The notes under the pieces: generated by a model
What the model was told of the DNA's origin: nothing
The model's database searches: none
The model's input: only the letters and a program-made list of their open reading frames with translations
Source: Thainema sp.
Lineage (GTDB): Bacteria > Cyanobacteriota > Cyanobacteriia > Phormidesmidales > Phormidesmidaceae
Assembly: GCA_052168235.1 (NCBI GenBank)
Contig: JBQLZK010000087.1
Span: 1-22,788, forward strand
Length of the DNA stretch: 22,788 bases
Direction of reading: 5' to 3'
Shown here: one piece after another, positions 2,969-12,902 of the stretch
Numbering within the stretch: position 1 is the first letter of the stretch
How the letters are laid out: every line of letters starts with the position of its first letter
Made by a program: the position numbers and the translations under genes

Positions 2969-3550
2969 ATGAGCAACGGAGACACAGTTAAAGCTCAACC
3001 CGCAGCGCTACAAATCGGTGAGCTAGCCATTGAGGGGTATATGCTGCCCGATGGAAGTTACCGGATGTCGCAAACTCAGGTTGCCGAGTGCATTGGCTTG
3101 AGCGAAAGAAACGCCCGCGATTTTTTGCGCTCAAAAGCCGTCAAGTCTTTACTGGGAGAGGGTTATACGCCCGCGATTTCTCAGATAGAAGTTGAATCAG
3201 AAGCACAAACCAGAGGGCAAACCCGATTTAATGCACTGCCGCTAGAGGCTGTGTGTGCCTATTGGCAATGGCAGGCTTTCCGAGGGAACAAAACTGCTCT
3301 CGGTTTGTGCATGGCGTTGATGCTGGAATCTCTAGAGCGTCGCTTTGATGCAGCCTTCAACGTTGACCGCTCTGAAGCTGATTACAATCAGCGCGTAAGT
3401 GAACGGATAGAGCAACTAGAGCAGACTTTTGGTGATGCCTATGCCTTTGCCGACGATGCGGCAAAAGAACGTGATGAATTTCTCCGGCTGCTACAGGAGA
3501 ACGGCATTGACCCCTATGGCATCCCAGGTGAGGAGGAATCACAAAGTTGA
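2969..3550 (+). CDS. P63C/antirepressor-like DNA-binding protein with a C-terminal coiled coil
   Basis: N-terminal LQIGELAIEGYMLPDGSYRMSQTQVAECIG resembles the N-domain of P63C-associated phage proteins. Confidence 0.6.
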   Translation: MSNGDTVKAQPAALQIGELAIEGYMLPDGSYRMSQTQVAECIGLSERNARDFLRSKAVKSLLGEGYTPAISQIEVESEAQTRGQTRFNALPLEAVCAYWQWQAFRGNKTALGLCMALMLESLERRFDAAFNVDRSEADYNQRVSERIEQLEQTFGDAYAFADDAAKERDEFLRLLQENGIDPYGIPGEEESQS

Positions 3551-4170: not shown

Positions 4171-4424
4171 AAGCGACTTTCTATCAGAAATTGCTGCGAT
4201 CGCTTAGCGTAGGAGTTTCGGAGATTTAGCCAATGGATTTGAATCAGATTTGATTCAGCTCAGCTCATAAAATTTCTGGTGCTGGGTTTACCGCTATTTT
4301 GAAAGTAGTTTTTTTTGCCAGACCTGTGCACAAAAACAAAAGTTGCACATATAATCGGGATAGGTGCGATCGCACTGTGTTCTGGAGGCGTAATGCCCAA
4401 AGGGGATGAGGTTATGCAGTATCC

Positions 4425-4637
4425 ATGCCCAAAACAAAACGAGCAATTGAACAAATGGCTAATCAATCTGAAGCGTTTGGAATCCGTGTCTCTCGTGAAT
4501 GCTGGACTGCATTAGCCAGCCTGCAATCGCAGCGGGGCGATATCCCGCGCAATCGGTTGATCAATGAAGTGCTAGCGCGTGGGCTGGAAACGTATCCCGA
4601 ACTAAAGCCTGATAAAGTGAAAGCCTCAGTCGGTTAG
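4425..4637 (+). CDS. Small RHH (CopG/Arc-like) protein upstream of rep; start may be 4455
   Basis: SEAFGIRVSRECWTALASLQSQRGDIPRNRLINEVLARGL has a strand-helix-helix pattern. Confidence 0.6.
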   Translation: MPKTKRAIEQMANQSEAFGIRVSRECWTALASLQSQRGDIPRNRLINEVLARGLETYPELKPDKVKASVG

Positions 4638-4676
4638 GTGGTGGTACACCTGATTGACTGAGGCTTTCGGTTTTTC
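4620..4676 (+). terminator. 21-bp RNA hairpin with a U-tract (terminator or attenuator upstream of rep)
   Basis: aaagcctcagtcggttaggtg pairs with cacctgattgactgaggcttt, with three G-U pairs valid only on the + strand. It is followed by cggtttttt. Confidence 0.7.
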
Positions 4677-4755
4677 CTGTACATCCTAAATCGCCATCTC
4701 GCCAAAGTTGATCGATTTAGGGCATTGGCACCGTTTTAACGGTGTGCACATATCT

Positions 4756-5247
4756 ATGTTAGACAATTTACCTTATGTGAGTCACCTGCGCGAGGGTGAT
4801 AGCTGTTTATCAGATCAGGATTTCTTAACTAGCAATTCTTGCCCTCATCATAGCAAAAATGCCCCCCCAGGGCATAGGGTAGCAACCCCTCAGCGGGTAA
4901 AGGATTGCACGGCATACCCCCCAGGGGGATTAAGCAAGCACTTCACAATTGCTGATTATCGACGCTTAGAGAAGATTGCTGCGCCTGAGCCTTTCGAGGG
5001 TTGGCTGAAGGTTTTTGAAGTGGCAGAGCTCGATCGCATTGGCGACCAGCGGCGATGGAAGCTGTCTGTCTGGTGCGAGTCTGAGGGCTGCTATCGGGTG
5101 ATTGCTGGCCAATTCTTCAAGCCGGAAATCGATTGGATCAAGGATAGGTATCGAGAAACTAGGGATAAAGGGCGGTTTGCCTTAGCGATTGAGGTGTGGC
5201 TCCAGCGTGCGATCGAAGTTTGCACCTCTCAGGAGGTGGCAGCATGA
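4756..5247 (+). CDS. Hypothetical protein translationally coupled to rep
   Basis: Its stop TGA overlaps the rep ATG (ATGA 5244-5247). The start is uncertain (4708 or 4756). Confidence 0.6.
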   Translation: MLDNLPYVSHLREGDSCLSDQDFLTSNSCPHHSKNAPPGHRVATPQRVKDCTAYPPGGLSKHFTIADYRRLEKIAAPEPFEGWLKVFEVAELDRIGDQRRWKLSVWCESEGCYRVIAGQFFKPEIDWIKDRYRETRDKGRFALAIEVWLQRAIEVCTSQEVAA

Positions 5248-8200
5248 GCGCGATAGCACCTCAACTGAACCAAGCATTAACTGGCCTCGATGCTTTTGAG
5301 GCGTTCTGCCAAGCCGTAGGCATCACTGAAGGGACTGAATTTCTGTGCGCCTACGGTGAGGAAAACAAGCTTACCCTGAAGGCTCGAAAGCTCGAAAAGG
5401 GCTTAGTTGCTTGGCAGGTATACAAGAAAAATAATTATCAAGGGCGGGGCTTTGGCAAGCTTTACCGATATGAGGATTTGCGGGAGCTGGCCAAAATCCA
5501 GAACCTATTCTTTATCCCAAACCTGACAACTAAGGGCAGATCAAACGCCTGCGTCGATACACCTGCTAGATATCTCTATGCCGAAATCGATGATTTGGCG
5601 ATTGCTGAGCAACGGCAAAAATGGGGCGATTTCTACCAGCGGTCTGGACTGAAACCACTGGCTCAGGTTCACACAGGCAACAAATCCGACCATCACTATA
5701 TCGGCGTTGAACCCGATTCTATTGAGGAGTGGGGATACCTCCAGAAGTGGCTTTGTGCCTTGATGGATGCTGACCCAGCACCGACCAGCCCACACCAGCC
5801 GATGCGGATGGCTGGTTTCCCTCGGATCAAAAACGATACTGAGCGGGAAGTATCGTTGCTAGAAAGCAATCCCGCCACTTATTACACCAGCGAGGAAATT
5901 AGAGCAGCCTTTGAGAAGGCTTGGCCATATTCAGAACCGTTTTCTCTGGAGCGATGGGAAAAATATCGGAGTGCGGTTGCGATCGCAACCAATCCAAACA
6001 TTGATAACAGCCGCATGGCTCCAATGTCTGAGCCTGCTGACGCTTTCAGGCTATCGGATGGCGAACTATTCCCCAAAGGCAAAACTAAGGCCAAGAATCG
6101 GCAGAAAGGCGAGAGTACAGCCACATACACCAGTGGCCAAAAATCTGACGGCGGCTTTCTGGATGAGTTAATCAACCCTCTGCTAGATCTACCTTTAGAA
6201 TCTCAATATTCACTTGGGAACTACGATCATCAGTTTCAAGCTAAAGCACCCGGTTTAGTAGGCTGTAGCCCCTGGAGTCCGACAAACGAAAGCGGAGAAT
6301 CATTCAAGGTTTTCACCAGCAACGGCGGTTGGTTTTGCCATGCCTCACAGCAAGGCGGCGGTTTGTTGCAATACCTGCAACTGCAATGGATCGGCAAGCT
6401 TTGGGGCGAAATGGAGCCGGACGAGCGGAAAACGTTTGTCCGTAAGCTTGAAAAAAATAGCTATTGGACAGCATTCGCCAACCAATCAGGGATTGAACTG
6501 GACTATAGCCAGAGTGAATCACACTGGCGATCGCAGATTGAATCAGCACTTGCTGCACAGCAGATGCTATCTGGCCCCGTAGAGGTTGGCACTTTTCCAG
6601 AGTTGGAGATTGGGCCTAATCCTCAGCTTTTCGTACTCGACGGGCAAAAAGGCACTCGCAAAACGAGCAAATCCATTAAATCCCTGATTGCAGATTGCAA
6701 GAAAAAGGGACTGCGAGCTGTCGTATTCTCGCCGACTCGGCTACTCAATAAATCCGAAAAACGCACTCTGGGACTCCCGACGATTGACGAGGTGAAGCTA
6801 TCTCAGCGGGATAAGGTGCCGTTTGTTATCGCTTGCCCTGAATCGGCTCATAAGCTTTCTTTGCTTGATTTTGACCTGGTGATTATCGATGAAGCGAATG
6901 AGGTTGTCGAGCGAATCTTAGAGGGCAATTTAGGCAATCAGCCAGCCAATTCACGGCGGCAATTCAAGCGGCTTCTGAACGCGGCAAAAACAGTCGCGAT
7001 CGCGAATGACATGCTCTATAAATCGACCCTGAATTACGTTCAGCGGGTGGGTCGATTCAGTGCCGATGAAGTCACCGTCATTCGGCGGCGGCGGCCACAA
7101 ACGAAGATGAAGATCAATCTTTACGTGGACAACGGCGCAAGCGCTGAGCGGTGGGACGGTACAGATTCAGATCAGCCGAAGCAAAACACGGCTTTCCTGG
7201 ATTGGACACATAACTTAATGCGCAGTTTCAGTGATAAGTACGAATCGGTCAGTATCCCTTGCGGCTCGCAGAAGCGGGCGAGAGAGCTCGATAGGCTCCT
7301 CTCTCCCCACGCAGGCCCATGGTCGAACGTTCGCTGCATCGACGGGCAATATACCCCTAAGCCAGTCAAGGAAGCACTCGCAGCAGATCCGGACGGATGG
7401 CTGAAGCGAGAGCGGATTGGGGCGATGATTTTCACGCCAACTTTCAACAGTGGTGTGAGCTTTGAATCTGACCACTTTAGGCGGCAGTTCGAGTGTCAAA
7501 CCGCCTTTGAGACGGCTTCAGCCGCATCACAGCGAGGGGAACGGGTACGCGATGCCATTTGGGGCAAGCGCATCCGTGAACGGCACATTTACACCTCTCG
7601 CAGGGGATTGGCCAAGTATCCCGATACCGGCATTTTCTTTCCCGAATATTGGGCGAAATTTCTCAAGGCCGACCTAGCGGAGCGATCGCACAAAATCGAA
7701 GAAGAAACCGCGTCTACCCTTGGGGCTGCGGAAATTTTCAAAGGTGTTCGGGATATTAAGCTCGACGATTTCAGCGACATTCAGGAATTACCCGAATTTC
7801 TAGCCATTCGCGCCAGAGAAATCCATTTCAAAATTGAAGCCCTTTCGCGAGAATGGACTTCAAACGGTTGGGAGATTTGCTCTGGCTGCTTCGCGACGGA
7901 AGATGAGCGGGATGAGATCCGCAAGCGATACCAACGAGTACAGCAGGGCATTATCGAGCAAAAATCTCGGATTGGGGCAAAGGCTAAGCCTGCTGCGGTG
8001 TGGCAGGGTGTAGAGCCAGAAGGCCCGATCCATGCCGCGAAAATTCACAAGGCCCAGCTTTTTGATAAGCTGGGCGGTTTTAAGCGGCTGTGGGAAGCGA
8101 AATGGCTCGAAGCTTGGGATGTTGCGTCAGGCAATAAAAGCCTTGATCAAATCCAATTGCGGGCACTGCTGCAAACCGCGCAAACCGCACCCGACGAATT

Positions 8201-9044
8201 TGACGAGCTGCGGCGGTTTGGCGTTCTGCGGCTGATTGCAAAATCTGCGGATTTGGAAGCCAGCACAGAAGCGCGCTTACCTATCCCCAGGCGGCAATTG
8301 GAGACAGCAGTATTGCTCAGCCAGTGCCCCGAATTCCTAGATATCGCGTTTGGGCGCGTAGCCGAGTGGGATAAAAAATCTAGTCACGTTACCGCGATCG
8401 CGGCTTTCATGCGAAGCCATGCACGCGAGTTTGCCACATTGACCAGCCATAATCAGCGGATTCACGGCTTGCAATTCACCGAAAAAACGCCGGATATCAA
8501 ATGCGTTAATAAGGCTTTAAAGCTGCTTGGATTAGAGCCTGCCTGCCTGCGCCGGGAAGGAGAGAAACGGATTTCTATCTACGGCTTCAAGTCAACCGAG
8601 CAAAAGCTTGAGGCGTTGCTTGAGGAGCTGGATAAGCGGCAAATGCAGGAAAAGCCAACCTGGGAGGTTAACCGCAAAATCACCCGCGCCGAAACCGAAG
8701 ACGAACTCTGCGAGCAATTTCGCAGCCATCTGATGGCTACCGTCGCCGACCTTCAGCCGCAGTGGAAGGGGTTCTCTGAGAGGGTTTTAGCCGAGTTAAA
8801 AATCGCGACTAAGAACCCTGACACAACTTCAGTTAAGAGTAAATCTTCTCTTACTGAAGTTGTGTCGCCCCAAACAGACTCGCTCATTGGGCGATGGGTG
8901 AAGGTCGGGACAAGCCTGTCAAAGTGGCTTGTTGAGGCAGTAGAGCGCGGGCAAGCAATCATCACCCAATCAAATATTTACGGCTTGCAGCGGCGCGTGG
9001 TGGATTTGAGCCAAATATCAGTATGGGAGGGCGCGATCGCATGA
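5244..9044 (+). CDS. repA: Plasmid replication protein: RepB'-type primase, degenerate zinc-ribbon and SF2 helicase (CyRepA1-like)
   Basis: AGGAGG RBS at 5231-5236 before ATG 5244. Primase motifs YAEIDD, HTGNKSDHHY and DPA..SPHQPMRMAGF. Helicase motifs DGQKGTRKT, FSPTRLL, ACPES, VIIDEANE and FTPTFNSGVSF. Confidence 0.85.
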   Translation: MSAIAPQLNQALTGLDAFEAFCQAVGITEGTEFLCAYGEENKLTLKARKLEKGLVAWQVYKKNNYQGRGFGKLYRYEDLRELAKIQNLFFIPNLTTKGRSNACVDTPARYLYAEIDDLAIAEQRQKWGDFYQRSGLKPLAQVHTGNKSDHHYIGVEPDSIEEWGYLQKWLCALMDADPAPTSPHQPMRMAGFPRIKNDTEREVSLLESNPATYYTSEEIRAAFEKAWPYSEPFSLERWEKYRSAVAIATNPNIDNSRMAPMSEPADAFRLSDGELFPKGKTKAKNRQKGESTATYTSGQKSDGGFLDELINPLLDLPLESQYSLGNYDHQFQAKAPGLVGCSPWSPTNESGESFKVFTSNGGWFCHASQQGGGLLQYLQLQWIGKLWGEMEPDERKTFVRKLEKNSYWTAFANQSGIELDYSQSESHWRSQIESALAAQQMLSGPVEVGTFPELEIGPNPQLFVLDGQKGTRKTSKSIKSLIADCKKKGLRAVVFSPTRLLNKSEKRTLGLPTIDEVKLSQRDKVPFVIACPESAHKLSLLDFDLVIIDEANEVVERILEGNLGNQPANSRRQFKRLLNAAKTVAIANDMLYKSTLNYVQRVGRFSADEVTVIRRRRPQTKMKINLYVDNGASAERWDGTDSDQPKQNTAFLDWTHNLMRSFSDKYESVSIPCGSQKRARELDRLLSPHAGPWSNVRCIDGQYTPKPVKEALAADPDGWLKRERIGAMIFTPTFNSGVSFESDHFRRQFECQTAFETASAASQRGERVRDAIWGKRIRERHIYTSRRGLAKYPDTGIFFPEYWAKFLKADLAERSHKIEEETASTLGAAEIFKGVRDIKLDDFSDIQELPEFLAIRAREIHFKIEALSREWTSNGWEICSGCFATEDERDEIRKRYQRVQQGIIEQKSRIGAKAKPAAVWQGVEPEGPIHAAKIHKAQLFDKLGGFKRLWEAKWLEAWDVASGNKSLDQIQLRALLQTAQTAPDEFDELRRFGVLRLIAKSADLEASTEARLPIPRRQLETAVLLSQCPEFLDIAFGRVAEWDKKSSHVTAIAAFMRSHAREFATLTSHNQRIHGLQFTEKTPDIKCVNKALKLLGLEPACLRREGEKRISIYGFKSTEQKLEALLEELDKRQMQEKPTWEVNRKITRAETEDELCEQFRSHLMATVADLQPQWKGFSERVLAELKIATKNPDTTSVKSKSSLTEVVSPQTDSLIGRWVKVGTSLSKWLVEAVERGQAIITQSNIYGLQRRVVDLSQISVWEGAIA
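8820..8866. repeat. 19-bp inverted repeat inside the rep 3' end
   Basis: gacacaacttcagt(t)aagag-taaatctt-ctcttactgaagttgtgtc, with one bulge and an 8-nt loop. Confidence 0.85.
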
Positions 9045-9229
9045 ACCAACCAGCCCCCACCCGCGACGAACTCAAGCTTGAGTGCTACCAGTTGATCGAC
9101 GCGATCGCGGCTCATCGCTACGGCATCAAGCTTTTGATAGCGGCAAAGCAGGGGCTAATGCTCTACGTCGATTACAAGGGCAATCGCAAAATGGTACACA
9201 ATAGACTCAATGTGAGAAAGGAGGGATAA
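9041..9229 (+). CDS. 62-aa hypothetical protein coupled to rep
   Basis: ATGA overlap with the rep stop and a GGAGG RBS. Reads MNQPAPTRDELKLECYQLIDAIA. Confidence 0.7.
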   Translation: MNQPAPTRDELKLECYQLIDAIAAHRYGIKLLIAAKQGLMLYVDYKGNRKMVHNRLNVRKEG

Positions 9230-9232
9230 CCT

Positions 9233-9457
9233 TTGGAAGAGAAGCGCGAAAGAGATCCGCAAGCCACCGATCAAGATCGACCATACCAACCGACTCAATT
9301 GCCTACGCCGGAAGAGGTTGCGGCCTATCTGCGGTGGCTTGGCTATCCAGAAGAGCGGTATCGCCGGCTGGATGCAGCAAATCGCCAAAATTCCGACGTT
9401 TTGGCGCTGCTGTGGGCAAAAAATGTTCGACCTAGACTCAAAAAAGGAGCCTTTTAA
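9233..9457 (+). CDS. Small hypothetical protein (repeat family member)
   Basis: TTG start after AGGAGG; abuts both neighbours. Confidence 0.65.
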   Translation: MEEKRERDPQATDQDRPYQPTQLPTPEEVAAYLRWLGYPEERYRRLDAANRQNSDVLALLWAKNVRPRLKKGAF

Positions 9458-9682
9458 ATGTCAAACAAGCATTGGGATGAAGTCGCGATCGCGCGCGCCC
9501 AACGCCAGCGCGAATTACCCGATCGCACCAACGGATTGCCCGACCAGTGCGAGCAGTTTTTCGGGTGGCTGAAGAGCGAAAAACGCATTGATAACGGGCA
9601 ATACAGCGTCCTCACCCCGTGGCAACGCGTGGGATTATTGCGCGAGTTTGGCGCGAGTTTACCGAAGGAGGAAAACCAATGA
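9458..9682 (+). CDS. Small hypothetical protein (repeat family member)
   Basis: AAGGAG RBS. Contains FFGWLKSEKRIDNGQYSVLTPWQRVGLLREF. Confidence 0.75.
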   Translation: MSNKHWDEVAIARAQRQRELPDRTNGLPDQCEQFFGWLKSEKRIDNGQYSVLTPWQRVGLLREFGASLPKEENQ

Positions 9683-10080
9683 CAAACATTCCAGCGGGCA
9701 CCCTCGAAAGATTCCTAGAAACTCATGGTGAATCGCTCGATTCATACAACGAAATGCCCCCCAAAGAGCGCCAGAAGTGGCTTGCAGCTTGTGGGGAATG
9801 GTGGGAGCTGTTGAAGCTCCACGAAACAGAGCCACTGCCGTTTTACTTGGCTCCGCAAAGTCGCTGGCCCTTGCCAGCCCCCAATGGCGATTTCTTTCAT
9901 TGGCTCAAAGATCGAAAGCAGTACAGCAAAGCGGAATATCAGCGAAGCGATTTGCTGCACAAGCTGGGCCTGCTGCGCTGCTACGCCTTCGAGCTGAGCC
10001 GCAAGCCGATTGAGCCGGAAAAACCAAAAACTAAATACGTCGGCTACAAGTTGAAGCGAACAGTACTGCGGAATTTTTAA
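9679..10080 (+). CDS. Hypothetical protein with two copies of the small repeat module
   Basis: Start ATG 9679 (AAGGAGG RBS, ATGA overlap). Contains FFHWLKDRKQYSKAEYQRSDLLHKLGLLRCY. Confidence 0.75.
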   Translation: MTNIPAGTLERFLETHGESLDSYNEMPPKERQKWLAACGEWWELLKLHETEPLPFYLAPQSRWPLPAPNGDFFHWLKDRKQYSKAEYQRSDLLHKLGLLRCYAFELSRKPIEPEKPKTKYVGYKLKRTVLRNF

Positions 10081-10083
10081 ACT

Positions 10084-10551
10084 ATGTCTACCGTCGATGA
10101 AAAATATTTCAATCCCGCCACTGGCAAAGCCAACTGGCCCGCAATCAGCAAATTGAGCCAGAGTAACAAAGAGCTGGCTTTGGAAATTACAAAAGCCGTG
10201 CAGGAGCGCCAGCGCCCCTACTTGCGAGAGCAACGCGAAAAGGAAGAAAAAACAACCGCAGCAACCGCCAGCAAATTCACAGGAAAAAATCCTTGGGTCG
10301 ATTTGCCGGGGTGGAAAAACCTCACAGCCCAAGGGCGGCTGGTGATGACGGGCGATCCTGAAGAAGTCGCCAAAATGCGCCGCGATGCCGAGGCTATCAA
10401 TGACTACATCAAAACCTATGAAAGCTACGCAGAGCAACGTATCGAGGGATTGAAGCAAGAAATCGCAGAACTCGAAGATGTGCGATCGCGCCTCAAATCT
10501 GGCCACGTGCTGATCGATGTGGGCGCAAATGGCAACGTTGTGATTTCTTAA
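10084..10551 (+). CDS. Hypothetical coiled-coil protein
   Basis: 155-aa ORF starting 3 bp after the upstream stop. Confidence 0.75.
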   Translation: MSTVDEKYFNPATGKANWPAISKLSQSNKELALEITKAVQERQRPYLREQREKEEKTTAATASKFTGKNPWVDLPGWKNLTAQGRLVMTGDPEEVAKMRRDAEAINDYIKTYESYAEQRIEGLKQEIAELEDVRSRLKSGHVLIDVGANGNVVIS

Positions 10552-10600
10552 ATTCCCCTATCAATCAGGGTGCATCTACTGCTTTTCAGGGAATTGACTT

Positions 10601-11269
10601 ATGGAAATCTTCTACAAAGAATGGAGCGGGCCTGAATCGAACACCCTCGAAAAAGCCTGGGATACTACCCAGCCCGTACCGGGGCGCTGGTATCTCGTTC
10701 GCACTGTGCTCTGGTCGAGTAACCTTGAGAACATGCCAGTGTATTTCGAACCGCATGATGATGGTAACAGCGAAGGTTTGCACATTCATTTTGACGTGCG
10801 GTTCATGAGTCTTTTGCAATGCCAAGACGCGGCTGGGCTAAAGCCTGAATACCGCTATGAACTCGATTTCGATCCGGTCAGGCAACAGAATCTAATTCAA
10901 GCAAATATTCGGTATTGGGCGTGGGGAATTCGCTCGTTACTCCTCAATCCTGATGATTCTTTGTTAATCGAGTGGCGGCCTGTGCAATGCCGATTATCGA
11001 GGTTTCCTGAAAGGTGGCGTTACCGCTGGTTCGGCGACGTGGACTATGGGTTAGAGGAAGATGCAAAAATTCAAAACGGGATTTGCCCCCATAGAGGCTT
11101 TGATCTATCTAGCGTCAAACCAGATTCTAGGGGAGTGATTGAATGCCCAATGCATGGCGCTACGTTCTGCCCCCTCACTGGAAAATACAAAAAGGTGCCG
11201 CAATCAAAACTGCGTCGATACTTTGATGTCGAGACTGGAGATCCGTATGGGTATCAGCCTCGGGGGTAG
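10601..11269 (+). CDS. Rieske [2Fe-2S] motif protein 1 with an unrecognised N-terminal His/Asp domain
   Basis: CPHRGFDLSSVKPDSRGVIECPMHGATF matches CxH-x17-CxxH. Confidence 0.8.
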   Translation: MEIFYKEWSGPESNTLEKAWDTTQPVPGRWYLVRTVLWSSNLENMPVYFEPHDDGNSEGLHIHFDVRFMSLLQCQDAAGLKPEYRYELDFDPVRQQNLIQANIRYWAWGIRSLLLNPDDSLLIEWRPVQCRLSRFPERWRYRWFGDVDYGLEEDAKIQNGICPHRGFDLSSVKPDSRGVIECPMHGATFCPLTGKYKKVPQSKLRRYFDVETGDPYGYQPRG

Positions 11270-11276
11270 TAAATTA

Positions 11277-11837
11277 ATGGAATCAACAATCCTGGAATAC
11301 GACGGGCTACAACACAACCTCAAGAAAATTGATGAGGTAAAGCGCCCTGTGTCTGGGTCTCTTTATCTAGTGCCCTGCCTGCTGGATAACTGGCAGTTTT
11401 GGCCTGTTATCCCCCATATTCATACCGATGACTTCAATGATCTGACGCGAGAAATCGGCTCCCACATACACTACGACACCCGTTTTTTAAGCTGGGAACA
11501 GGTTTGCAGCTTGCTGGACGATCGGCAAGATATGAGCAACGAGGAAGCTCACCAGTGGTATTGGTCGCAGGCGATGGCGCTTGTCCATGCCGCATCAAAA
11601 CAAATCAGGCTACAGTATCGCCCCGTCCGCTGCGTCTGGTCTGATTTCCCCGAGCGTCGCGCGGCTTATACAGCAGAAGAATTGAAGCGGTTGTACGCCA
11701 ATGCGAGAATGTGCGATCGCAAGTGCCCACATCACCAATTTGATTTGAGCAACATCAGGCCCAACCGTAAAGGGCTGATTGAATGCCCGCTGCATGGTTT
11801 GACGTTCGATCAGCAGACGGGTAAGGTTGTGCCGTAG
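11277..11837 (+). CDS. Rieske [2Fe-2S] motif protein 2, tandem paralog
   Basis: Start ATG 11277, 7 bp after the upstream stop. Contains CPHHQFDLSNIRPNRKGLIECPLHGLTF. Confidence 0.8.
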   Translation: MESTILEYDGLQHNLKKIDEVKRPVSGSLYLVPCLLDNWQFWPVIPHIHTDDFNDLTREIGSHIHYDTRFLSWEQVCSLLDDRQDMSNEEAHQWYWSQAMALVHAASKQIRLQYRPVRCVWSDFPERRAAYTAEELKRLYANARMCDRKCPHHQFDLSNIRPNRKGLIECPLHGLTFDQQTGKVVP

Positions 11838-11840
11838 TAG

Positions 11841-12902
11841 CTACTTCTCAAAACGTGGCTGACCCACTGAGATAGATACCAGTTTTCGCCCAGCGCTAGA
11901 GTAAAAGATCAGTATTGGCGTTTGACAGTTGCACTGCTGTTGCCAAACGTTCCTCAAGCTAACTGCAATATCGGCTTGAGTTCCTTCAGGGAGTGTGTAC
12001 CAATCTTGTTGTACGACAATATCAAGAGCATCTTTTGAGTAAGAGCTTAGGTTGATGCTGGCAATTAGCGCACCGTTAGGATCTGCGCTGGCTACAGCTT
12101 CCTTGAATATGATTAGTCGCTGCGCCTCAGCCTGAGCTTCCTGCTGCAACCGTTGCGCCTCCAGTGTTGCCACCCTACCAGCCGCATACTGGCGATTTTT
12201 CTCATACTCAGTTGCCTTTTGCTGAGAGAGCGCTTTGTTGGGGCTACCTTCTGGCACAGCGTTCATTTGGCCTATGGCTGCTTCCCATAGATTAGATGTG
12301 CGTTTCCACTCACTTTCTAACTGTGCATTTTGAGCTGAATTTGCAGCGCTTGTCGCGTATTCAATCCCTTTAGCAAATGGGTCAACAGGAGGTGCTGGTT
12401 CTTCTGGCTGTTCCTCTGTTGCTCCAGCAAACCTCTCCTCAATGCGCGACCAGGTGCCGTTATAAACCAAGAACCCCCTGCCGAGCAAAACAGCAAGAAT
12501 GGCTAACAGTCCCCAGACAAAAATCTTTCCGCAACCGCTCCCCGATTGAGGTTCGGTCTTAACTTCAGATGCAGCTTTTTGCGAGCTATTGGCAGCGCTT
12601 GTTTTTGCCACTGGCTGCGGCCCGCCTAAAGCCCACTGCTCAATCCAGCTATCCTCACCACCACTAGCTTGAGCCTTCAGAAACACCTTTTCAACGCCAG
12701 CGGGCCTAATGCCGTCAATACCTTTTCTCATAGCTCCAGCCAGCTTACGATCGGGCAAGCGATCGCTCTCCATCAATACCTTCAGCACCGCACCCGACCG
12801 AACCACTTGAACTCGAATCCCTTTGGGCTGAAAGCTCTGATTCATCAACTGGGCAAGGGCTTTTGTATCACCAGCACGGGCTGCGGCTTTGATGTCGTTC
12901 AT
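11841..12902 (-). CDS. Single-TM cyanobacterial hypothetical protein with a TPR-like helical domain
   Basis: N-domain ALAQLMNQSFQPKGIRVQV, TM segment IFVWGLLAILAVLLG, and helical motif W...SNLWEAAI..MNAVPEGSPNKALSQQKATEY. Confidence 0.75.
   Translation of the reverse strand: MNDIKAAARAGDTKALAQLMNQSFQPKGIRVQVVRSGAVLKVLMESDRLPDRKLAGAMRKGIDGIRPAGVEKVFLKAQASGGEDSWIEQWALGGPQPVAKTSAANSSQKAASEVKTEPQSGSGCGKIFVWGLLAILAVLLGRGFLVYNGTWSRIEERFAGATEEQPEEPAPPVDPFAKGIEYATSAANSAQNAQLESEWKRTSNLWEAAIGQMNAVPEGSPNKALSQQKATEYEKNRQYAAGRVATLEAQRLQQEAQAEAQRLIIFKEAVASADPNGALIASINLSSYSKDALDIVVQQDWYTLPEGTQADIAVSLRNVWQQQCNCQTPILIFYSSAGRKLVSISVGQPRFEK

Follow-up and report, generated by a model that had tools for sequence, protein, structure and literature searches.

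Rieske clusters are known from respiratory complexes and ferredoxins, and large multi-component oxygenases take up their electrons through them. The alpha subunits of Rieske oxygenases, such as DdmC (3gb4), SxtT (6wn3) and CntA (6y8j), comprise 340-450 amino acids (aa), with an N-terminal Rieske domain followed by a Bet v1-like domain; their iron motif reads E/D-x3-D-x2-H-x4-H, and reductase or ferredoxin genes are clustered with them. Rieske ferredoxins, such as TodB (3dqy), CarAc (3gce) and T4moC (1vm9), consist of about 105-115 aa and of the full three-sheet fold only. PetC-type proteins of the bc1 and b6f complexes possess a membrane anchor or Tat signal and an extra, disulfide-forming cysteine in each box. 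In addition, CMP-N-acetylneuraminic acid hydroxylase joins a complete N-terminal Rieske domain to a large metallo-beta-lactamase-like domain. Here we describe two adjacent genes, A and B, of Thainema sp. (assembly GCA_052168235.1, contig JBQLZK010000087.1), which fit none of these layouts. Their products combine an N-terminal domain that carries a strictly conserved His/Asp motif with a small C-terminal Rieske-type box. The window, that is the whole stretch of DNA analysed, is the entire 22,788-bp contig of a 7.5-Mb genome, and its ends do not overlap.

With the Rieske oxygenases A and B share the low-potential type of CxH...CxxH box, and the proposed likeness is that of a Rieske cluster feeding a His/carboxylate metal site. 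In contrast, the order of the two parts is reversed, family members comprise about 180 aa only, the oxygenase iron motif is missing, and no reductase or ferredoxin gene stands beside A and B or the homologs examined. Compared to Rieske ferredoxins, A and B lack recognisable basal sheets, while a 145-residue domain precedes the box. Compared to PetC-type proteins, they lack both a hydrophobic N-terminus and the extra cysteines. A preliminary description of this locus had held that neither the oxygenase nor the PetC layout applies, and we agree: the box is C-terminal, and neither a Bet v1-like domain nor a hydrophobic N-terminus is present. CMP-N-acetylneuraminic acid hydroxylase would resemble A and B in that one chain holds a Rieske cluster and a non-Bet-v1 metal domain with His/Asp motifs. 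However, its Rieske domain is N-terminal and we detected no similarity in sequence or fold. The same two-part layout and length is found in the phage protein family phrog_10072, an entry without function, domain description or structure. Judged by sequence, the A/B family is thus neither a Rieske oxygenase nor a Rieske ferredoxin nor PetC-type, and would work most like a Rieske oxygenase in miniature.

The gene pair and its Rieske box

The features of the pair are given below. The family profile A2 named there belongs to an alignment of 132 of the 150 listed family matches; it omits 17 that exceed 235 aa and a single match of 130 aa.

10601..11269, plus strand: gene A (P0001), 222 aa, from ATG to stop; open reading frame (ORF) with translation, family profile A2 at E 5e-40
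10754..10804, plus strand: His/Asp motif of gene A, H52-x-D54-x6-H61-x-H63-x-D65-x-R67-F68; kept in 258-262 of 262 members, on two neighbouring strands in the model
11084..11158, plus strand: Rieske box of gene A, C162-P-H164-x17-C182-P-M-H185-G186; Pfam PF00355 at E 5.4e-10, VIA-align Z 3.2
11277..11837, plus strand: gene B (P0002), 186 aa, paralog of A, from ATG; translation, family profile at E 1.6e-47
11421..11486, plus strand: His/Asp motif of gene B, H49-x-D51-x11-H63-x-H65-x-D67-x-R69-F70; invariant or near-invariant columns of alignment A5, and sequence
11724..11798, plus strand: Rieske box of gene B, C150-P-H152-x17-C170-P-L-H173-G174; Pfam PF00355 at E 6.2e-7, and sequence

Gene A comprises an N-terminal domain of about residues 1-150, the minimal Rieske box and a 37-residue tail. 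According to the preliminary description both proteins end in the box, which is true for B, where 13 residues remain after it, but not for A with its longer tail. As listed, the ORF of gene B opens at TTG 11139. However, the family profile aligns only from just after ATG 11277, so that this ATG, 8 nt beyond the stop of gene A, is most likely the start.

Compared end to end with BLASTP, A and B share 65 of 200 residues (33%, E 7e-27), and pairwise alignment shows the common blocks PVPGRWYLV/PVSGSLYLV, PHDD/HIHTDD, HIHFDVRF/HIHYDTRF, WRPVQC/YRPVRC and FPER. A and B are paralogs. The tandem pair at 10601..11837, with these blocks and the pattern CPH-x17-CPxHG, is therefore as it had first been described. 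In a FastTree phylogeny of 154 rows, A and B group with P0071 and apart from the copies of another genus of the phylum (g45), a tentative placement given long branches (Shimodaira-Hasegawa-like support 90). The pair would fit an old local duplication. All 32 homolog-bearing loci examined have one copy each, so far leaving this window as the only place with a tandem pair.

Pfam PF00355, which has a gathering cut-off of 20.3 bits, scores 39.5 bits on A (residues 156-203, profile positions 37-82 of 88) and 29.7 bits on B (residues 145-185, positions 38-76 of 88), and the spacer between the ligand boxes is 17 residues in both. The same family is matched by 130 of the 132 aligned members; other Pfam families gave two single matches at chance level (E about 0.01). 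Structural alignments of A to Rieske proteins with VIA-align span 35-47 residues within model residues 158-204 (Z 2.0-3.2). The Rieske part thus appears to be minimal, as had been proposed, with the cluster-binding part alone being recognised. Closest in structure are the ferredoxins TodB, CarAc and T4moC, which align with A residues 159-199 (Z 3.2, root-mean-square deviation (rmsd) 2.2, 40-41 residues aligned). The tail of A contains a Pro-loop-like stretch that aligns with the Pro-loop region of TodB, the toluene dioxygenase ferredoxin, and is modelled at a predicted local distance difference test score (pLDDT) below 50.

When the family profile was compared with PDB sequences, all 25 matches at E<=10 were Rieske proteins and all fell on profile positions 131-191. 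The best ones were oxygenases and ferredoxins, namely DdmC (2.6e-6), then SxtT, CntA and T4moC. Beyond the ligands, further features of the Rieske consensus are present: CPHRG-x-D-L, a Gly four residues before the second Cys, CP-x-HG-L-x-F, and T-G. The boxes read CPHRGF/CPMHGA in A and CPHHQF/CPLHGL in B and are without the additional cysteine pair of bc1/b6f-type proteins. Since these cysteines are absent and the best sequence relatives are oxygenase or ferredoxin components, we judge the box to be of the low-potential kind. NCBIfam models came nowhere near their cut-offs on A or B; the sub-threshold matches were Rieske ferredoxin and oxygenase models only, the latter at 17-19 bits against cut-offs of 113-781.

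The N-terminal domain and the His/Asp motif

The AlphaFold2 model of A, based on alignment A2, has a mean pLDDT of 80 and a predicted template modelling score (pTM) of 0.69. Its elements follow in the order strand 30-38, strand 43-53, strand 60-64, three helices (71-109), strand 112-114, strand 120-129, helix 137-143 and a loop-rich cluster box, while residues 206-222 are disordered. A model of the N-terminal domain of B alone (145 aa; pLDDT 81, pTM 0.71) has the same element order.

Fold searches recovered the box only. With whole A, Foldseek gave no match at E<=0.001, neither against the PDB, where Rieske rows were mostly pieces of 32-53 columns at E above 1, nor against the viral models of BFVD. 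VIA-align of whole A against 48,161 chains yielded 21 at Z>=2, all on residues 150-205, led by 3dqy_A (Z 3.2, rmsd 2.2, 40 residues aligned); 20 of the 21 are Rieske-fold proteins (one, 3c0d, is the nitrite reductase small subunit). The N-terminal domain of B alone had no Foldseek match in the PDB at E<=0.001 (best E 0.82, TM-score at most 0.19). Its sole VIA-align chain at Z>=2 among the same 48,161 was the Sm-like protein 3by7_A (Z 2.3, rmsd 3.4, 63 residues aligned), which we take as chance. With this method, even a model that lacks a clear match will usually attain Z 7-8, and a best value of Z 2.3 is thus unusually empty. When the protein-language Atlas was searched with the N-terminal domain alone and Rieske-bearing clusters were skipped, the best score was 0.76, which is noise level. 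The N-terminal part matched no characterised family in Pfam, NCBIfam, PADLOC, PDB sequences, Foldseek or VIA-align. Given these empty family and fold searches, the N-terminal domain of about 145 aa appears to be an undescribed domain that matches no solved structure searched here, in agreement with the earlier view that it is unrecognised.

Conservation was counted on the family profile among 262 family proteins of 140-320 aa, in gene A numbering, with one protein of 130 aa left out. P46, D54, H63, D65, R67, C162, H164 and H185 are kept in all 262, H52 and H61 in 261, C182 in 260, F68 and G178 in 258, V33 in 253 and G28 in 252. Since family members are only 22-34% identical to A, the strict conservation of the motif points to a catalytic or metal site. 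The preliminary description had made its proposal depend on these His/Asp residues being conserved in homologs, which is what we found (261-262 of 262). By pattern matching, H-x-D-x(6-14)-H-x-H-x-D-x-R is present in all 150 listed matches, one of which has Asn in place of H61. The four Rieske ligands are present in 149 of the 150, the exception being P0008; in another three proteins the spacer measures 14 or 20 residues. Motif and box were always found together in family members. C35 and C130, both semi-conserved, were considered as a disulfide or shared site and rejected, as they are not positively associated (odds ratio 0.13).

In both AlphaFold2 models the three motif histidines belong to one hairpin, with H52 closing the first strand and H61 and H63 lying in the second. 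As side chains alternate along a strand, those of H52, D54, H61, H63 and D65 should point to the same side. In carbonic anhydrase, the metal site consists of a His-x-His pair and a His from a neighbouring strand.

A mean-field covariation analysis (262 sequences, about 250 effective, 198 columns) returned 56 column pairs scoring above 1.1, compared to 3-6 in each of three column shuffles, a control that ignores relatedness. The pairs 51-62, 45-64 and 35-44 fit hairpins, the first two of them joining both motif strands, and 30-127, 20-125 and 49-125 tie strand 120-129 to the sheet. Eleven of the 56 pairs are inter-domain, among them 24-171, 31-190/191, 68-186 and 56-165, and the last two flank the Rieske His ligands. 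We regard this inter-domain signal as a weak lead.

Family distribution and genomic setting

A full HMMER scan of 1.84 billion representatives with a profile of A and B gave 149 matches at E<=1e-10 and 1080 at E<=1e-3. Many are 160-210 aa long, align from about profile position 17 to about 205 and have the same two-part layout. The family thus comprises at least 149 sequence clusters and possibly about a thousand. A word-indexed search with A alone had returned just A itself among 69 candidates. With the A2 profile, 184 matches at E<=1e-10 were found among 1156 candidates of a 5.8-billion-protein collection. Among the 120 matches listed, the only names were "hypothetical protein", "Rieske Fe-S protein" and "Rieske 2Fe-2S domain-containing protein", and the sole precomputed Pfam family was PF00355. 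Ten representatives that were looked up are all singleton metagenome clusters, one of them named, as a hypothetical protein of a Flavobacteriales metagenome-assembled genome (MAG). The nearest Atlas cluster to whole A is a 180-aa "hypothetical protein" with 576 members, 76% Rieske, and of the members with a recorded taxon 58% are viral.

The 178-position profile of phrog_10072 ("unknown function") is matched by 128 of the 132 aligned members, many of them end to end, e.g. over positions 5-165. In a direct PHROG scan A had no match and B a weak one to phrog_10072 (E 0.0017, profile positions 131-166 only). By homology, the A/B family would belong to PHROG 10072. Full-text literature searches joining Rieske with phage or viral genomes found, in their search listings, no paper on the family. 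It is therefore undescribed in function, though already catalogued. Of the novelty that had been claimed, the undescribed His/Asp domain stands, while the pair is not isolated but part of an existing PHROG. A check of 4851 candidates for longer fused forms gave none, which counts as weak evidence, and the 17 longer members and the shorter one have no Pfam domain besides Rieske. PADLOC gave no match to A and one chance-level match among the 132 members (REase_II, E 2.6e-4).

The 60 close relatives of the host genome have Rieske-only matches and no full-length member. Among 401 genomes of the phylum, 23 match at E<=1e-8, with full-length copies only in the window genome and in 7 of 19 genomes of the genus g45; the remaining 15 match in the Rieske part only. 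In one of these g45 copies (L036:7944-8414, genome G302) the reading frame shifts just past the CPH box and the remainder of the Rieske box follows in a different frame, which indicates either a decaying copy or a sequencing error. Viral contigs of IMG/VR yielded 23 loci, of which 21 are full-length, one is cut by the contig end (L045) and one is a 308-aa Rieske-only protein (L059). In contrast, one genome each of 185,579 species yielded 43 loci with only 4 full-length members, from MAGs labelled Flavobacteriales, Bacteroidota, Dehalococcoidia and Latescibacteria. These counts are lower bounds, as the IMG/VR scan used one 8-residue pattern from a 27-row subset and the species scan a near-identical pattern, each of which detects a member only if its box matches exactly. 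Many full-length members in viral contigs against few in cellular genomes point to a family carried mainly by phage-like contigs and mobile elements. The phage or plasmid bias for which a check had been suggested thus shows as 21 full-length members in viral-contig loci against 4 in cellular loci. The idea that the genes tie the element to the photosynthetic redox state of the host is, in contrast, unlikely as a family function, since most members occur in phage-like contigs and non-cyanobacterial genomes. Searching 50,697 isolate phage records with A, P0017, P0029 and P0008 (tblastn) gave no match, and plasmids matched neither the region nor A (blastn, tblastn). Of sequencing runs, no RNA run and two DNA runs were listed as matching, the latter two with partial shares.

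Upstream of the pair, two further features of the contig were located:

4621..4666, plus strand: terminator-like hairpin with a 20-bp stem followed by a T-run; strongest by far in 4400-12200, just upstream of the replication row
5196..9044, plus strand: PrimPol-helicase-like replication gene, 1282 aa; archaeo-eukaryotic primase domain of PrimPol (PDB 6zp9) at E 5.4e-5 on residues 122-212, and PHROG DNA helicase/replication families

Genes A and B close a same-strand row that is headed by this 1282-aa gene, whose product likely serves the replication of the contig. Two g45 loci encode proteins of 1228-1239 aa upstream of their homologs; between these and the 1282-aa protein no similarity was detectable. 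No strong terminator-like site was found on the plus strand from 5196 to 11837, and promoter-like sites were no commoner than in shuffles. A convergent gene for a 353-aa protein without family match (11841-12902) ends three bases from the end of gene B (11835-11843), so that no room is left for an intergenic terminator. Other products of the contig are a ParA-type ATPase, a ParG-like protein, a ribbon-helix-helix/helix-turn-helix protein, a GNAT acetyltransferase and an FtsK-like fragment. This gene content supports a plasmid-like contig in which A and B would close the replication operon of a mobile element. The preliminary description had likewise assigned them to the replication operon of a selfish element, which the PrimPol-helicase gene at the head of the row and the nearby ParA and ParG bear out. 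Apart from A and B, only the product of 2969-3550 (plus strand) has a detectable relative in g45 loci: this 193-aa protein matches PHROG 32599 (unknown function, E 2e-12) and is 53% identical to an ORF of locus L035 (5648-5902).

The g45 neighbourhoods comprise six loci with 117 ORFs, a seventh (L033) being left out as near-copy of L032. They contain an MT-A70 DNA methylase in 4 of 6 loci, DUF3846 in 5, HNH endonucleases in 3, an FtsH-like AAA ATPase in 2, and a 1228-aa Toprim/D5_N primase and an integrase in 1 each. Directly upstream of the family gene, a short DUF1822 gene is found in 3 of 6 loci (L034:7513-7896, L035:8588-9067, L036:7219-7914), covering just the first approximately 150 positions of the 370-position profile. 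Around the homologs of L030, L031, L034, L035 and L036, the genes DUF3846, DUF6283, DUF1257, DUF2997, MT-A70 methylase and HNH_3 recur, and the recurring set resembles an accessory region that a single family of elements has in common. For viral contigs, ten non-redundant loci with 122 ORFs were compared, 13 of the 23 being left out as duplicates, cut or Rieske-only. N6/N4 DNA methylases and terminases occur in 2 loci each and an HNH endonuclease in 1 of 10. Also present are an NAD-dependent ligase with a pyrimidine-dimer glycosylase, NAPRTase, a radical SAM protein, YopX, a sliding clamp and a portal protein. Across the six g45 and ten viral loci no neighbour recurs directly beside the family gene, which behaves, as far as gene order tells, as a free-standing accessory gene. 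Neither a reductase nor a ferredoxin was found among the 24 ORFs of the window, the 117 of the g45 loci and the 122 of the viral loci. The earlier statement that no reductase is encoded therefore extends from the window to the g45 and viral loci compared.

Proposed mechanism and alternatives

We tentatively propose that A and B are diverged copies of a minimal two-centre redox enzyme, in which a low-potential [2Fe-2S] cluster would feed a His/Asp metal site; this is a possible reading, short of a probable one. The C-terminal 45-50 residues would form the Rieske-type Cys2His2 box and likely bind the cluster. Reduced by a host ferredoxin or reductase, the predicted cluster would hand single electrons to a second, mononuclear metal site. 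This second site is likely built from H52, H61 and H63 with the assistance of D54 and D65, all on the same side of the hairpin of the N-terminal domain, and the substrate would be held by R67 and F68. Judged from the analogous Rieske oxygenases, the reaction would be an O2-dependent hydroxylation or demethylation.

Several observations weigh against this proposal. Just the cluster-binding subdomain of the Rieske fold is recognisable. Moreover, B and most members end short of the third (Pro) loop, the usual cover of the cluster; the cluster might therefore lack stability, or zinc might take its place. In the representative P0008 the third ligand (the second Cys) is exchanged for Tyr. Furthermore, the motif differs from the 2-His-1-carboxylate pattern of known Rieske oxygenases, and Pfam detected no oxygenase catalytic domain in A, B or the 132 members. 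The covariation signal comes from about 250 effective sequences, with a shuffle control blind to relatedness, and the sixteen gene neighbourhoods gave no clue to a substrate. In addition, members occur in MAGs labelled Dehalococcoidia and Latescibacteria; if these hosts are anaerobes, O2 chemistry becomes less likely.

The best surviving alternative, though still an unlikely one, is a hydrolytic His/Asp metal centre (Zn, Mn or Mg) of a phosphodiesterase, nuclease or deaminase-like enzyme, in which the Rieske-type cluster would be structural or a redox or iron switch. Metallo-beta-lactamases have the motif HxHxDH, and the combination of H-x-H-x-D with H-x-D recalls such hydrolase motifs. The lack of a nearby reductase gene, the possibly anaerobic hosts and the nuclease-rich accessory regions of phages and mobile elements, here with HNH genes near 3 of 6 cyanobacterial and 1 of 10 viral loci, would suit a hydrolase as well. 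However, Pfam, PDB sequence and structure searches returned no hydrolase family or fold, and a domain of about 145 aa is far too small for the metallo-beta-lactamase fold. The four cluster ligands are, moreover, kept as strictly as the His/Asp motif, which fits a coupled function, and to our knowledge no purely regulatory role is known for Rieske clusters.

The two-centre proposal can be taken further, into territory we consider distinctly doubtful: the family might be the smallest self-contained Rieske-type oxygenase yet seen, with approximately 180 residues, a fold absent from the PDB, and cluster and 3-His/Asp iron site in one chain. Spread by phages and plasmids, it might oxidise or demethylate a nucleic-acid base or a host immune-signalling nucleotide with electrons from any host ferredoxin, and A and B might act as a heteromer here.

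An electron carrier or redox sensor only, that is a Rieske ferredoxin on a novel scaffold that serves a host enzyme and uses its His, Asp and Arg residues for docking or proton-coupled transfer, seems improbable. Phages carry electron carriers such as ferredoxin and plastocyanin, the Rieske part is structurally nearest to ferredoxin components (3dqy, 3gce; Z 3.2), and a stand-alone accessory gene would fit a carrier. Docking surfaces are, however, rarely invariant in a family with only 22-34% identity to A; a set of three His, two Asp and an Arg that 261-262 of 262 members retain is rather the pattern of a catalytic or metal site, and hosts from several phyla make a single conserved partner unlikely. 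Least probable is a zinc knuckle or ribbon in the Cys2His2 box of a zinc-stabilised nucleic-acid- or protein-binding factor with the His/Asp motif as separate active or binding site. In its favour, the structural alignment with Rieske proteins is limited to 35-47 residues (Z 2.0-3.2), a zinc-ribbon subunit of RNA polymerase I stands in the same VIA-align list (Z 2.1), and neither the basal Rieske sheets nor, in B, the covering loop is present. Against it, the Rieske consensus is matched beyond the ligands, Pfam finds Rieske in 130 of 132 members and 25 of 25 PDB matches are Rieske proteins.

From the Rieske fold the family keeps just the cluster-binding knuckle, welded to a 145-residue domain unmatched by solved structures. 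If the two sites of the proposed enzyme communicate, it would represent a novel, very compact way to build a redox catalyst, suited to structural and spectroscopic work and possibly to enzyme engineering. Many recently found enzymes in the conflict between mobile elements and their hosts act on nucleotides or DNA. Since the family is mainly a stand-alone accessory gene of phage-like contigs and mobile elements, its substrate likely bears on how these elements deal with their hosts.

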